Below are positions 1,661 through 51,468 of a stretch of DNA of 64,000 bases, piece by piece. The translations under genes were made by a program, and so were the position numbers. The DNA comes from Rhynchopus sp. YZ270_cl-10 (lineage: Eukaryota): NCBI GenBank assembly GCA_964035575.1, contig OZ037835.1, forward strand, positions 1,240,001 through 1,304,000, given 5' to 3'. The notes below the pieces were generated by a model that did not search any database, had not been told where the DNA came from, and saw nothing but the letters and a program-made list of their open reading frames with translations. The number at the start of each line of letters is the position of its first letter. Position 1 is the first letter of the stretch.

Positions 1661-2497
1661 ATGGACCTGAACATCAAGGGTTTCGACACGAATCAGCACA
1701 CAGTCGAGGTGGGTGTGGATGACACAGTGGAGGGCTTGCGGCGGAAGGTGGCGTCTGCAATGGGGTTGCCTGAAGACGGCTTTTGCATGAGTTTCGGAGA
1801 CGAAGCGCTGGGAGAAGGAGCGGACATGACGCAGCTGAGTGCTGGTGACACAATCATCCTGACGAAGACGCAGAAGTACCAAGCCATTGCAGAGCTTCAT
1901 GCGTTGGGTGAGACAGACCTGACCGCCGAGAGGTTGGAGAGTGTGGAGGATCCTGAGGTGGCGTGTTTGCTTCTGCAGGCGGAGGTTGCGACTGTCATTC
2001 CGATTGGGTTCTTGTCAGGCACTTCGTTGACGAGACTTGATCTCAGTGCTGAGTCCATTGTTACTCACATTGGAGACGACTTCCTGGTATACTGCACCTC
2101 GTTGACAAGTGTCAACCTCTCTGGGTTGAGCAATGTGACGGAGGTTGGTGCCAGGTTCCTTTGGAACTGCAGCAGCTTAACGACCCTGGATTTGTTACCA
2201 CTCAGCAATGTGACGCAGGTTGGTGCGGGCTTCCTTCACAACTGCAACAGCGTAACAACCCTGGATTTATCTCCACTCAGCAACGTGACGCATATTAGTA
2301 GCGGTTTTGGAGGGACGTATTTTGCTAATTACTGCACTTCGTTGACGAGCATTTACCTTTCCGGCTGCAGCAGTGTTGTGTCCAAGGAAGTGAGGAAGGA
2401 CGAGAAGCTGAGGAAGCTTGTGGTTGAAGCACGTCCGAAACGAAGCAGAGACGAATCCCCCGAGCAAAGCCAGAAGCGACGGAGACACGCACAATGA
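1661..2497 (+). CDS. Ubiquitin-like + BspA/TpLRR-type LRR protein, subfamily A, 278 aa, uninterrupted
   Basis: N-terminal ~70 aa aligns by eye to ubiquitin (MDLNIKG..TVEVGVDDTVEGLRRKVASAMGLPED..F.DEAL), with no terminal GG. Followed by 25-aa repeats CxSLTTLDLSPLSNVTxVGxxFLxx and a basic NLS-like tail. Confidence 0.9.
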   Translation: MDLNIKGFDTNQHTVEVGVDDTVEGLRRKVASAMGLPEDGFCMSFGDEALGEGADMTQLSAGDTIILTKTQKYQAIAELHALGETDLTAERLESVEDPEVACLLLQAEVATVIPIGFLSGTSLTRLDLSAESIVTHIGDDFLVYCTSLTSVNLSGLSNVTEVGARFLWNCSSLTTLDLLPLSNVTQVGAGFLHNCNSVTTLDLSPLSNVTHISSGFGGTYFANYCTSLTSIYLSGCSSVVSKEVRKDEKLRKLVVEARPKRSRDESPEQSQKRRRHAQ

Positions 2498-3929
2498 CGA
2501 CGTGGTGTGTTGGTGGGAGGGCAGCACCTCCCCGAGATGGAGGGTCTCTGGCAGTGTGTCTGCTGCGTCCTCTGGTTCGGAGAAGAAGAGGGGCACAGTC
2601 TTGCTCACCGTGGCACAGACTACTACTTGGTGCGAGAGGAGAGCTGTGCTGAGCAAGACGTTCCACACATTGTGTTATGTTACGCTGTCTCCCCATTGTG
2701 AAGCTTTCTTTTCACTCCTCTGCCTTTTTGGCTTTACGCCTTTTTTATTGCTGTTTTTTCACTCAATGACTCTATTTCTATTTTGCCTTTTTCCATGCTA
2801 CAGGAGGATTGGCCACTCCAATATGCATGAAATTGTTTACTCTTTTGTCCCGAAGGTCAACACGAGAGCTTCTGCAGGCACTGCTGAAGGAAGTTCACGT
2901 GGATGACTCTAAATGAGTTGACTGTGGACATATTTGTGCAAAGATACAAATGCAAATAATTCCCCGAAACAAAACAAAATACTGTAGGAGTGTGGCTACA
3001 CTAATACAACCAAGTTTTAATACTGGAAAGATAAGGATTCTGACACCTCCTGCAAAGCGTACTCCTTCTATTTGCTCTTTTTTAAGGATCCTGTGAAGAA
3101 AATAAAGGTGCCTGCTATCTAGTGATAGTAGTCTGTAATCAGGCAAAATTATGTTACGCTGTGCTGCAAAAGAATCCCCACCAAAACCCATGTCTTTTTC
3201 ATTACAACGTACCTCCCCACCCAATCCCCCTTTTTTTTCTGTAATTCATCACTCTGAACTCGTTGACACGACGTGGTCTTTCACTGTCTTCTTGGTAGCT
3301 TGCACGAAGAGGTGTGAGGTGCGATGACGGTTTTCCAACAAAAGGCTACCCCCCCACCTCCACCTTTTCTCACCCCCTCCAGTCACGCTTCTTTTCTCAT
3401 AGAACGGTGTTCTGCTGAGAGGGAGAGTTGATACACCATTTTTTTTGCGAAGGCGCTTTCCCCGTTGGTACATGGAGTATCTGCAAGGTGTCTTGGTCTT
3501 GCATTTCGTAGCACCCTCGCGTACTGTGGCTGCTTCGACAATGGTCTGAGTACCCAGAAGAGGTCTGTGCTCAATGTTGGCAGAATCCACTATTCTTATT
3601 GCAAAGAGCCTCAGGGAGGTATCCTGCTGCGGTGGTGTCGGTACGTCCCCTAGCCTAGCAGACGAGTAACAGGCGGCACCTAGGTGTAGTGTTGGCTCAG
3701 TAGGGATCTGGTGTGTACCTCCACAGTGTGCGACCACCTTTGTTTCACATGGTTTGCCATCCCAGCATTTTTTAGGTTTTTACGAAGTTGTCTTTCTTGT
3801 TTGTTCCGTTGTTGCGTTGTGTTGAGGATGATATTACTCTTATGAACTCCCGTCTTCCCACAGTTTGTTGGCAAGGTTCTTGAAAAGGACTGCAGGCTTG
3901 TTGTCCTCCACACCCCACCACAACACACA

Positions 3930-48640: not shown

Positions 48641-50136
48641 AGAGCGACAGGAGAAGCTAGGCAAGGAACGTAGAGCAGCTCCGCTGTGACAGCTGCTTGT
48701 CCCATTCTGCGACGTCGGTGTGAGTCTGAGAAGACAGTGTCTGAATGAGAGTCAGTGAGGCACTCAGATAACACAGTTGCTTTCTCGTTGTGTAACTGTG
48801 CCATGCCAGCGAACCAACACCGTGTAAAATGATCTCGGAGTGCACGTGCGTTCGCTCAAGATACTGCGCAGCTCGTCCTTCTCCAGTACACGTGTGATCC
48901 ATTTCGTGTCGGAACGACATCCACACTAATACAACGAGGCTCGATTATTACGACACCATGGTGCACACAGACCACAGACAGGTCTACGGGCTGTATGTAG
49001 TGACCAACCCCACAGCAAAGGGGTAACACAAGGTGCACGACGAAGTGAGTTGACTGTGGTTTTGCTGTGGGGTGGAAGCGTACAACAAACTCACCCCCTG
49101 TTTCGTTTCCCGTTTTTCCTGTGTGGGTGAAGATAGCTATTGACACCGTAGTATTTACTGTTGTGAGAGGGGTGGAGAGGGTGGGATGGGCGGGGTGGGG
49201 ACAATGGGCGAGTTTTTGTTTCATAAAAAGCGCCAACAAATTTGTTACAATTTGTATAATCTGCCAAACGGGGTGCGGTTTGGTGTGTTTAGCATTTGAG
49301 TCGATGCCAAACACCCCATACCGTTGTTCTACTTTCAGGTTGCGAAAGTGCCGGGAGGTATCCAGAACCACCCCCAACACGATTTTCTGGGGTTTTTTGG
49401 TGAAAAGGGGCAACCCACAGATGGTTCCGTCACACAATCCATGCTGTTTTTATTCCACAGAACCGATATGTGTGTCTCCCAAACAACAAAAAAGCGAATG
49501 AATAGAAATGTTGGAAGCAAATAGGAAGAACAAAACAATGTTGTTTCCAACAGGGATAGGCTCTGAGTGACTATACAATGGTAGCGACCACATTGTAAAT
49601 GTGGTGCATGGGAGAGAAATATGGAGAGCTTTGTGTGCGAATGCAAAGGAAAACATGGTGCTTTGTGAATGAAGCGAGCCTCTCACGCAATGAACCGTAT
49701 AGTACCTATTGTTTTAACCACCCAACACCCCATCACACACACACACCACCCCCCCCTTTGACAGCGTTTTTATAACCGAACACAAAAACCCTTTCCCCCT
49801 CTGCCGGTTGGTGCATGGGGGTATCTGCAACGTGTCTTTGCTAATGTACTTCGTAGCAACCTCGCGGGCTTTGTATCCTTCTACAACTCGCCTAAGTACC
49901 CAGAAGAGGGTCTGTGCTCAATGTTGGCCGAATCCTTTTACACTACAGAAGGAAAATACGTAAAGAGCAACATTACACAAAGTGGCGTAGTCCGCATGAG
50001 TGCTCCTCAATGTGTACGGCTACCTACAAAGGAAGCGGCTTTCGTGAGGTGTTGTTTTTCTTTGACCATGTTCACCCACCACAGCCCAACTCCCACAACC
50101 CCACCGCACAACAGAGCAACACAAAAGGAAGACAAA

Positions 50137-51468
50137 ATGGAAGTAGTTATCAAGGACTGTGCAGACAACTCGTACATGATAGAGGTGGGTGTGGATGACA
50201 CAACGGAGACTATGCGGCAGAAGGTGGCGTCTGCAGTAGGGTTGGCTGAGGACAGCTTCCACATGGGCTTCGGAGGGAAGGAGGAAGGAGACGACATCAC
50301 GCAGCTGAGTGCTGGAGACGCAGTCGTGTTGACGAAAAGTAAGAAGTTCGTGGCCAGAGCAGCACTTCATGCGTTGGGTGAGAGGGACATCACTGCAGAG
50401 AGGCTGGTGACTGTGGAGGATCCTGAGGTTGCGTGTTTGCTTCTGCAGGCGGAGGTTGCGACTGTCATTCCGAATAAATTCTTGGCACACACATCGTTAA
50501 CAGCACTTGATCTGAGTGCTGTGTCGTGTGTGACGGAAACTGGTGATGAGTTTCTTCACCACTGCACATCGTTGACGAGCGTCGACCTGTCTGGGTTGAC
50601 ACGTCTCACGCGGATTGGTACCCACTTTCTTTCCTACTGCACCAGCCTCACATCAGTAGACTTATCACCACTTCGCAATGTTACTCACATTGACGCAGGA
50701 TTTCTTACCGACTGCACCAGCCTAACAGCAGTTGACTTAACACCATTTCGCAATGTTACTCACATTGACGCAGGCTTTCTTTCCAACTGCACCAGCCTCA
50801 CAGCGGTGGACTTAACAACACTTCGCAATGTTACACGAATTCGTGTCTGGTTTCTTTCCAACTGCAGCAGCCTCACAGCAGTAGACTTAACACCATTTCG
50901 CAATGTTACTCACATTGATGACCGGTTTCTTTCCAACTGCACCAGCCTCACAGCAGTAGACTTATCACCACTTCGCAATGTTACACACATCGACGTCTGC
51001 TTTCTTTCCAACTGCACTAGCCTCACAGCAGTAGACTTAACACCACTTCACAATGTTACTCACATTGCTGAACAGTTTCTTGCCCACTGCACCAGCCTCA
51101 CAACAGTTGACTTATCCCCACTTCTCAATGTCACACAAATTGATGACCGGTTTCTTGCCGACTGCAGCAGCCTCACAACAGTTGACTTAACACCACTTCG
51201 CACTGTTACTCAAATTAACCTCTGCTTTCTTTCGAACTGCACCAGCCTCACAGCAGTAGACTTATCCCCACTTAGCAATGTTACGTACTTTGGTGCCCTT
51301 CCTGCTGACGGCTGCACTTCGTTGAGGAGCATCTACCTCACCGGCTGCAGCAGTGCTGTGTCCACTCGAGTGCGTCATAGCACGCTGAACGAATACGTGG
51401 TTGACGCACCTCCGACACGTGGCAGAGACAAGACACAAGCAGCCGTGCATTGCTGCAGTGTTTCGTAA
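50137..51468 (+). CDS. Ubl-LRR subfamily B protein, 443 aa, C-terminal CaaX (HCCSVS)
   Basis: Tandem paralogue of 47459-48640 with exactly two more 75-nt repeats; flanks also duplicated. Confidence 0.9.
   Translation: MEVVIKDCADNSYMIEVGVDDTTETMRQKVASAVGLAEDSFHMGFGGKEEGDDITQLSAGDAVVLTKSKKFVARAALHALGERDITAERLVTVEDPEVACLLLQAEVATVIPNKFLAHTSLTALDLSAVSCVTETGDEFLHHCTSLTSVDLSGLTRLTRIGTHFLSYCTSLTSVDLSPLRNVTHIDAGFLTDCTSLTAVDLTPFRNVTHIDAGFLSNCTSLTAVDLTTLRNVTRIRVWFLSNCSSLTAVDLTPFRNVTHIDDRFLSNCTSLTAVDLSPLRNVTHIDVCFLSNCTSLTAVDLTPLHNVTHIAEQFLAHCTSLTTVDLSPLLNVTQIDDRFLADCSSLTTVDLTPLRTVTQINLCFLSNCTSLTAVDLSPLSNVTYFGALPADGCTSLRSIYLTGCSSAVSTRVRHSTLNEYVVDAPPTRGRDKTQAAVHCCSVS

Follow-up and report, generated by a model that had tools for sequence, protein, structure and literature searches.

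Why should a gene family keep its N-terminal domain and most of its repeat framework nearly constant while a few codons in every repeat turn over, and why do retroposons enter such genes repeatedly at the same codons? Both questions are raised by a 64,000-nucleotide stretch of the genome of Rhynchopus sp. YZ270_cl-10 (GenBank assembly GCA_964035575.1, contig OZ037835.1, positions 1,240,001 to 1,304,000), referred to here as the window, which carries an array of genes encoding an N-terminal ubiquitin-like domain (Ubl), a helical cap, and leucine-rich repeats (LRRs) of the BspA-like (TpLRR) class. The main signal in these Ubl-LRR genes, four hypervariable codons per repeat, was omitted from the initial annotation, which described five complete copies that differ mainly by whole repeat cassettes. 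The copies are as follows.

1..71, + strand: 3' end of A0, a further subfamily-A copy that continues upstream of the window (tblastn, 100% to A1 residues 257-278)
1661..2497, + strand: A1, intact open reading frame (ORF) of 278 aa, with Ubl at residues 1-71, three-helix cap at 72-110, TpLRR solenoid, and predicted bipartite nuclear localization signal (NLS)
2438..2485, + strand: predicted bipartite NLS of A1 (KRSR, 8 residues, KRRR)
4659..6305, + strand: A2, subfamily-A gene broken at codon 94, giving 354 aa only if a 562-bp insert is taken out
20153..29937, + strand: A3, subfamily-A copy with three interruptions; 302 aa only without all inserts
47459..48640, + strand: B1, intact ORF of 393 aa; C terminus CCSVS, a predicted CaaX motif with adjacent Cys
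50137..51468, + strand: B2, intact ORF of 443 aa, two repeats more than B1; C terminus CCSVS

Three of the five window copies (A1, B1, and B2) have intact reading frames and are complete as described, whereas A2 is interrupted by one insert and A3 by three, each bounded by an 18- to 20-bp target-site duplication (TSD); the interrupted copies are likely pseudogenes still able to donate cassettes. Lengths do step by 25-aa cassettes (+76, +24, and +50 aa), but position-matched repeats differ mostly at the four hypervariable codons. The N termini are near-invariant within each subfamily, as had been stated, A1 and A2 differing by 4 nt over 87 codons and B1 and B2 by 7 nt over 112 codons.

The array belongs to a large family, at least 120 paralogs (ENA proteins apart from the window's own) lying on 25 contigs, a lower bound rather than a genome-wide total. 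Family statistics given below out of 120 refer to the best 120 of 517 matching proteins among 2154 candidates, all of them family members. An N-terminal profile search returned 281 representatives, and 101 of the 150 listed were family-like; the 20 representatives that were looked up all come from ENA and lie on large contigs, which fits a single assembly.

Hypervariable codons and cassette exchange

From 119 of the 120 proteins, 471 repeats were parsed by a search pattern that itself fixes the core positions, and 465 of them were distinct. Entropy at repeat positions 19, 20, 23, and 24 was 3.0 to 3.7 bits, compared with 0.8 to 2.2 bits at positions 4, 5, 7, and 9, which face outward on the conserved strand. 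When A1 and A2 are compared in position-matched DNA, 12 of 36 nt differ in the hypervariable codons versus 4 of 192 nt elsewhere; counted by effect, there are eight replacements and no silent changes in the 12 hypervariable codons versus three replacements and one silent change in 64 others (P = 5e-8). The corresponding figures for B1 and B2 are 7 of 36 nt versus 2 of 192 nt (P = 4e-5). Among 63 protein pairs with two or fewer framework differences, drawn from the 62 of 120 proteins that have an ungapped segment, 75% of the hypervariable sites differ.

Recombination between repeat cassettes was detected among 14 subfamily-B repeats (P = 0.0026): they are mosaic, with 101 of 153 site pairs incompatible. 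In a solenoid, like positions of consecutive repeats line up as a stripe, and the four variable residues of each repeat would together form a single binding stripe.

Ubiquitin fold, cap, repeats, and tails

An AlphaFold2 model built on an alignment of 73 sequences from among the 120 proteins had a predicted local distance difference test score (pLDDT) of 91. In this predicted model, residues 1 to 71 superpose on ubiquitin with a root mean square deviation (rmsd) of 1.4 to 1.6 Å over 71 residues. Because a diglycine (GG) follows the last Ubl strand in none of the 120 close paralogs, the domain is read as non-conjugatable. PF13306 scores of 37.4, 84.7, and 122.5 bits (curated cutoff, 27.7) place the repeats in the BspA/TpLRR class; 73 of 73 members match this family at an E value of 0.1 or less, and the LRR part of the model matches TpLRR-class structures with Z scores of 12.1 to 12.9, the best being 4fs7 (Z 12.9; rmsd 2.8; 138 residues aligned) and the TpLRR structure 6mlx (Z 12.5; rmsd 2.5; 139 aligned). 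The ubiquitin fold, the missing GG, and the BspA-type repeats recognized in the initial annotation are thus all borne out. The repeat unit is 25 residues long (75-bp cassettes, intronless) with an FLxxC end, and the cap consists of three helices (72-106) that close the solenoid. The cap had no sequence match in Pfam or PDB, and a model of the isolated N terminus (pLDDT, only 52) was too poor for a structure search; bacterial TpLRR structures do align, over their N-terminal part, with a portion of the cap.

The C-terminal tails carry predicted addresses. Subfamily A ends in a bipartite-NLS pattern, counted by regular expression in 88 of 120 close paralogs, and subfamily B ends in CCSVS, which is predicted to be CaaX-like. 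Among 48 LRR-bearing 50%-identity representatives, which are not fully independent, nine have Cys at position -4 (P = 5e-5), in mutually unrelated tails such as CVLQ, CVCM, and CAIS. No signal peptide or transmembrane (TM) anchor was recognized in the three window proteins by a crude measure, the Kyte-Doolittle maximum of the first 30 residues (-0.04 to 0.53), and their sole hydropathy peak (1.99) is a cap helix. The B tail (48555-48690) looks derived from the A tail, with an altered first basic cluster and a short CaaX-stop segment, after which the sequence resembles the second basic cluster of the A tail. A second repeat protein with the same type of address is encoded by an ankyrin-repeat gene (13164-14105, + strand) that starts with a bipartite-NLS-like motif.

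In the intact window proteins the LRRs run right up to the tail, leaving no NTPase or nuclease module of the kind found in CR proteins. Elsewhere in the family the head is combined differently. Eight proteins (P0176, P0193, P0198, P0272, P0273, P0292, P0295, and P0297) have B-box-like zinc fingers and a helical region ahead of the Ubl-LRR part, an arrangement that recalls TRIM proteins but has no RING. In P0190, P0290, P0174, P0215, and P0201, the same Ubl is followed by unrelated C termini, namely, a P-loop-like domain, a repeat domain, and another helical or LRR-like domain; the P-loop-like motif occurs only in P0190 and P0290, which had no Pfam match there. The Ubl thus acts as a mobile header.

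No Ubl-cap homolog from another named organism was seen among the best 120 of 517, 150 of 281, and 120 of 172 matches, and no related locus was found in collections of viral or metagenome contigs; the ESM Atlas gave leads under 0.9 only (ubiquitin plus DUF285 clusters) and assigned the RT of the LINE described below to no lineage. The only named eukaryotic protein with the same repeat type among the matches listed is from a Flectonema neradi transcriptome; it lacks the Ubl and ends in CCVC. The repeat type is also present in some proteins resembling those of giant viruses or secreted bacterial proteins, and for this reason it may be laterally acquired. A literature search, with subscription journals and bioRxiv supplements mostly outside its coverage, found no description of the architecture or of such a family in diplonemids. 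The architecture appears to be new, while related protist LRR expansions and hot-spot families are already known.

BspA-like (TpLRR) expansions occur in Trichomonas vaginalis (911) and Entamoeba (PMC2843621), where, as here, a very large protist TpLRR family varies in repeat number, and some Entamoeba members end in CAAX; the present family differs in its 25-aa repeat with an FLxxC end, its N-terminal Ubl and cap, its NLS tail, and its lack of a TM segment or signal peptide, and the word "ubiquitin" is absent from the main text of that report. The young LRR genes of Tetrahymena, built from 90-bp exons with introns and mostly under purifying selection (PMC6564038), likewise form a lineage-specific, mostly intracellular LRR repertoire of fixed-length cassettes, with an adjoining long interspersed nuclear element (LINE) and a proposed role in innate recognition (PMC6564038). 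Unlike them, the Rhynchopus genes have intronless 75-bp TpLRR cassettes, four hypervariable codons, a Ubl head, and address tails.

Retroposons in the Ubl-LRR genes

The elements inserted in and next to A2 and A3 are listed below.

3930..4615, + strand: LINE-like fragment, 5' truncated, ~45 nt before the A2 ATG; 13-bp TSD
4941..5502, + strand: element a, similar to a short interspersed nuclear element (SINE), 562 bp, in A2; 20-bp TSD with one mismatch, containing AG|GT
20369..27984, + strand: ingi/L1Tc-like LINE, 7616 bp, in A3 right after the last Ubl strand; 19-bp TSD
20369..20455, + strand: predicted hepatitis delta virus (HDV)-like ribozyme, starting on the first base of the LINE
28070..28671, + strand: second copy of element a, 602 bp, in A3 at the same target codon; 99.3% identical to 4941-5502 and 40 nt longer at its 5' end
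28864..29465, + strand: element c, the third A3 insert, 602 bp, in the first internal repeat; 18-bp TSD

Because of the TSDs and the LINE ORFs, the inserts are read as insertions rather than introns. The element a target (4921-5522) contains AG|GT, so that its duplication yields GT-AG ends, and splicing from GT to AG within the A2 duplication would give back exactly 354 aa; A2 has 13 other frame-keeping donor/acceptor pairs, and the acceptor of the duplication is a weak GAG.

The LINE shows the features of the ingi/L1Tc clade, an apurinic endonuclease (APE) with a reverse transcriptase (RT), a 2A-like motif, and a TSD; Pfam listed RVT_1 only, for the RT frame. The 2A-like motif, APE, and RT lie in ORF2, which is split by a frameshift near 24.1-24.3 kb, and ORF1 carries an OTU domain in which the catalytic Cys and His are present. 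The Cys/His-rich end of the 3930-4615 fragment resembles, by eye, the C terminus of a LINE ORF2. The HDV-like descriptor, which was self-written after the fold had been seen, has 20369 as its only start site on both strands of the window and none in three shuffles. Rfam returned nothing at gathering score, nor in four short regions, leaving the predicted ribozyme without an Rfam match, and the 5' ends folded no more stably than shuffled sequences did. The APE-RT organization, 2A-like motif, TSD, and short nonautonomous companions are shared with ingi/L1Tc elements (PMC5814959), as the predicted 5' HDV-like ribozyme would be; the extra OTU-bearing ORF1, the TSDs of 18 to 20 bp, and the Ubl-LRR gene targets set the window LINE apart (PMC5814959).

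Retroposons insert repeatedly at three fixed codons of the Ubl-LRR genes. Fifty-three representatives break off before residue 165, with clusters at residues 70-73 (16 proteins), 92-94 (9), and 148-152 (4); 16 of 53 breakpoints within a 4-aa window were reached in 0 of 20,000 uniform shuffles, which indicates recurrent insertion. The sites correspond to codons ~72, ~94, and ~151 of diverged paralogs and involve at least three element types. In nine proteins from several subfamilies, element a occurs after one and the same codon, and a second element does likewise in four; in seven element a peptides compared, 0 to 2 of 76 residues differ while their hosts differ at 1 to 8 of 22. Element a is also contiguous with diverged paralogs in contigs from sequencing runs, in four proteins the codon-72 site adjoins a LINE 3' end, and the junction peptide of element c recurs in three database proteins, one of them probably A3 itself. 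Resemblance to the host gene was the basis on which these protein sets were chosen, and they include some of the window's own copies, so that the data show recurrence, not exclusivity. Upstream of A1 (1236-1619), the sequence differs from that upstream of A2 and A3 up to about 45 nt before the ATG, which suggests another insertion at the 5' site occupied by the 3930-4615 fragment.

Four proteins (P0187, P0402, P0410, and P0411) are in-frame Ubl-OTU fusions in which different Ubls, 3 to 12 of 55 residues apart, precede an identical OTU-bearing ORF1. That such fusions are selected products was considered and is unproven: out-of-frame truncations escape detection more readily than long fusions, the junction in A3 itself does not keep the frame, and cleavage by the predicted ribozyme would remove the Ubl part. 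The initial annotation had speculated that the Ubl-LRR proteins are the counterpart of OTUs encoded by transposable elements (TEs). A physical link does exist, the OTU-LINE inserting at the end of the Ubl; a functional pairing is unsupported. OTU domains are common cargo of unrelated transposons, including Ginger and Helitron elements (PMC2836005), so TE-encoded OTUs need no host counterpart.

The closest parallel in pattern, without a sequence relation shown, is with trypanosome retrotransposon hot spot (RHS) genes and with CR proteins, which have Ubl headers (PMC7563717, PMC5289972). Both are multicopy, with a conserved N terminus, a variable C terminus, and many pseudogenes, and RHS/CR proteins are nuclear where an NLS is predicted here; RHS genes, too, receive a LINE and a SINE at a constant position in the 5' coding region. 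Unlike RHS genes, the present family encodes LRRs rather than an NTPase or nuclease, has three coding target sites and several element types, and hosts a LINE with an OTU-bearing ORF1. It would represent an apparently independent second hot spot of the RHS type, likely euglenozoan, with several elements and recurring in-frame Ubl-OTU fusions, and is relevant to the question of what draws site-preferring retroposons to gene families that evolve rapidly.

Function of the family and neighboring features

On balance we lean, by a modest degree, toward a birth-and-death repertoire of intracellular binders directed against fast-evolving invaders, in which the conserved Ubl and cap would serve a shared partner. 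Four hypervariable sites per repeat, cassette recombination, and at least 120 paralogs uphold the diversifying binder family proposed initially, and the N termini, which are not signal peptide-like, and the NLS or CaaX tails agree with its intracellular location. Turnover of the four residues would be driven by selection for new specificities, and the tails would address members to the nucleus or to the cytosolic membrane face, as their predicted localization suggests. Conservation of the Ubl implies a common partner, on which the acidic, non-conjugatable Ubl and cap may dock and which is probably no canonical proteasome receptor. Viruses, endosymbiotic bacteria, or mobile elements might supply the protein ligands; secreting bacteria are known to live inside diplonemid cells (bioRxiv 10.1101/719211).

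The selection analysis is divided. In favor of selected binders, the ratio of replacement differences (pN) in hypervariable codons to silent differences (pS) in the framework is 1.42 (1.16-2.04; 10 repeats) and 2.50 (1.68-4.71; 13 repeats) in the two subfamilies, estimates that come from window copies only, with nonindependent repeat pairs and no multiple-hit correction. Although pN exceeds framework pS in both subfamilies, silent change is also raised in the hypervariable codons, and the within-codon pN/pS is only ~1.3 in A and 0.94 in B. Because silent change is raised in the same codons, selection and patch conversion are not fully separable, and some of the signal could be mimicked by patch conversion or by hypermutation acting locally. 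Several further observations weigh against a repertoire of selected binders. The comparison of A2 with A3 reveals no enrichment (1/24 versus 1/141; P = 0.27), repeat positions 1 and 16 are variable too (2.97 and 2.82 bits), and positions 19, 20, 23, and 24 also vary in homologous repeats of other organisms and are for that reason intrinsically tolerant. Placement of the variable stripe on the concave face would depend on the flipped curvature of TpLRRs that Takkouche et al. reportedly described in 2023. As for the tails, 27 of the 48 representatives, some of them truncated, have neither an NLS nor a CaaX motif, and NLS-like motifs may be common in this genome, since the ankyrin gene has one.

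Among the alternatives to an intracellular repertoire, offensive effectors in the style of Crinkler/RHS proteins have a limited chance of being correct. The Ubl would be a delivery header into prey or host, and the NLS or CaaX motif would place a variable LRR that blocks target proteins. CR proteins with Ubl headers act in the nucleus and include trypanosome RHS (PMC5289972), the present family is a retroposon hot spot too, the same Ubls head other C termini, including the P-loop-like proteins P0190 and P0290, and diversifying selection suits offense as well as defense. However, no Crinkler family was among the 25 Pfam families listed for 73 members, the main family lacks an NTPase or nuclease and a secretion signal, no delivery route is known, and CaaX and NLS motifs operate in the producing cell.

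It is improbable that the array is mostly dispensable tandem sequence, shaped by unequal crossing-over, relaxed constraint, and patch conversion, with retroposons piling up in unimportant copies. The two interrupted window copies, the 53 early breaks, and the raised silent change in variable codons fit such decay, as do an A-versus-B N-terminal pN/pS of ~0.56, which means only moderate constraint, and an untranscribed tandem ORF array of similar unit size in D. papillatum (PMC10161547). Relaxed constraint, however, cannot yield eight replacements and no silent changes in 12 codons between copies otherwise ~98% identical, and the core, cap, and tails conserved across deep subfamilies, together with independent CaaX tails, indicate selection on the protein. 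A stronger version of the binder hypothesis is similarly improbable: a VLR-like intracellular immune repertoire of hundreds of Ubl-TpLRR binders, diversified through the shuffling of cassettes and hypervariation of single codons, addressed to nucleus or membranes, and parasitized by site-specific retroposons that would disable the genes and, where they land in frame just behind the Ubl, capture it for their own OTU deubiquitinase, giving Ubl-OTU decoys recruiting the same partner.

The initial annotation had the Ubl dock on Rpn1, Rpn10, and Rpn13 and route bound proteins to degradation, in opposition to TE-encoded OTUs, a reading that we now regard as quite unlikely. Like the Rad23 and Dsk2 shuttles (2nbw, 2bwe), the family has an N-terminal integral ubiquitin fold without GG; unlike them, it has lost the Ile44 patch, presents an acidic surface, has no detected UBA domain, and is multicopy and hypervariable. 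Proteasome binding as a rule requires a hydrophobic Ile44-type patch, and the receptor sites are acidic. In an ungapped alignment to ubiquitin residues 6-58, the Ile44 equivalent is Ser in 102, Gly in 16, Asn in 1, and Arg in 1 of 120 proteins, with Ile in only 2 of 101 divergent representatives; the Val70 equivalent is Thr in 111 of 120, and the net charge is negative in 120 of 120, reaching -6 or below in 119. The structural matches to ubiquitin, Dsk2, Rad23, Hub1, and SUMO differ by no more than ~1.5 Z, so that shuttle UBLs are not favored. With the Ile44 patch lost and the Ubl acidic, canonical docking is unlikely, and the proteasome-adaptor claim is not supported. Some UBLs do bind the proteasome by non-Ile44 surfaces, the Leu8 equivalent is mostly hydrophobic or aromatic and the His68 equivalent mostly hydrophobic, and the three-helix cap looks UBA-like by eye. 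Against the proteasome reading, the cap is partly alignable with bacterial TpLRR structures, and OTUs occur in unrelated transposons. Given the Leu8 equivalent, a non-canonical partner is possible.

Restriction of the cell's own retroposons, with nuclear members binding ORF1/ORF2 particles and the elements targeting the genes as a countermeasure, is the least credible reading, for although most close members have the NLS pattern, at least three element types hit fixed codons of diverged paralogs, and RHS genes have been proposed to control retroelement expansion (PMC7563717), the near-identical inserted elements could hardly drive the evolution of hundreds of specificities, the CaaX members argue for a location other than the nucleus, and the insertions are accounted for if the elements prefer a multicopy target as a safe haven.

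For the recognition of intracellular viruses and bacteria by free-living protists, the putative binder family offers a tractable candidate: its genes are small and have a single exon, each repeat varies at four residues, and the proteins share one conserved head and carry two kinds of address tag.

The window as a whole is eukaryotic, probably of diplonemid lineage, and rich in mobile elements. A SLACS/CRE-like retroposon (55219-63163) has a long ORF with an RT and two OTU-like motifs with Cys and His, and it is headed by a 40-nt stretch (55219-55258) followed by GT. This stretch resembles the diplonemid spliced-leader (SL) exon, a match not found in Rfam or in the literature searched. In D. 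papillatum the exon is 39 nt long and SLACS elements are present (PMC10161547). A hAT-like transposase frame lies at 38470-40236 (- strand; DUF659, E = 4e-7, below cutoff). An A-rich dispersed repeat occurs in both orientations and in long imperfect inverted pairs at 40567-44061, 63465-64000, and 35968-36593, and a similar motif lies just upstream of the SL-like exon. A PI-PLC-X-like gene (8635-10038, + strand) has few named homologs, all bacterial, making lateral acquisition possible; a homolog search pointed to no lineage. At 15099-17314, 17398-18021, and 56621-57216 lie a direct duplication of 526 bp and two tracts of degenerate tandem microrepeats.

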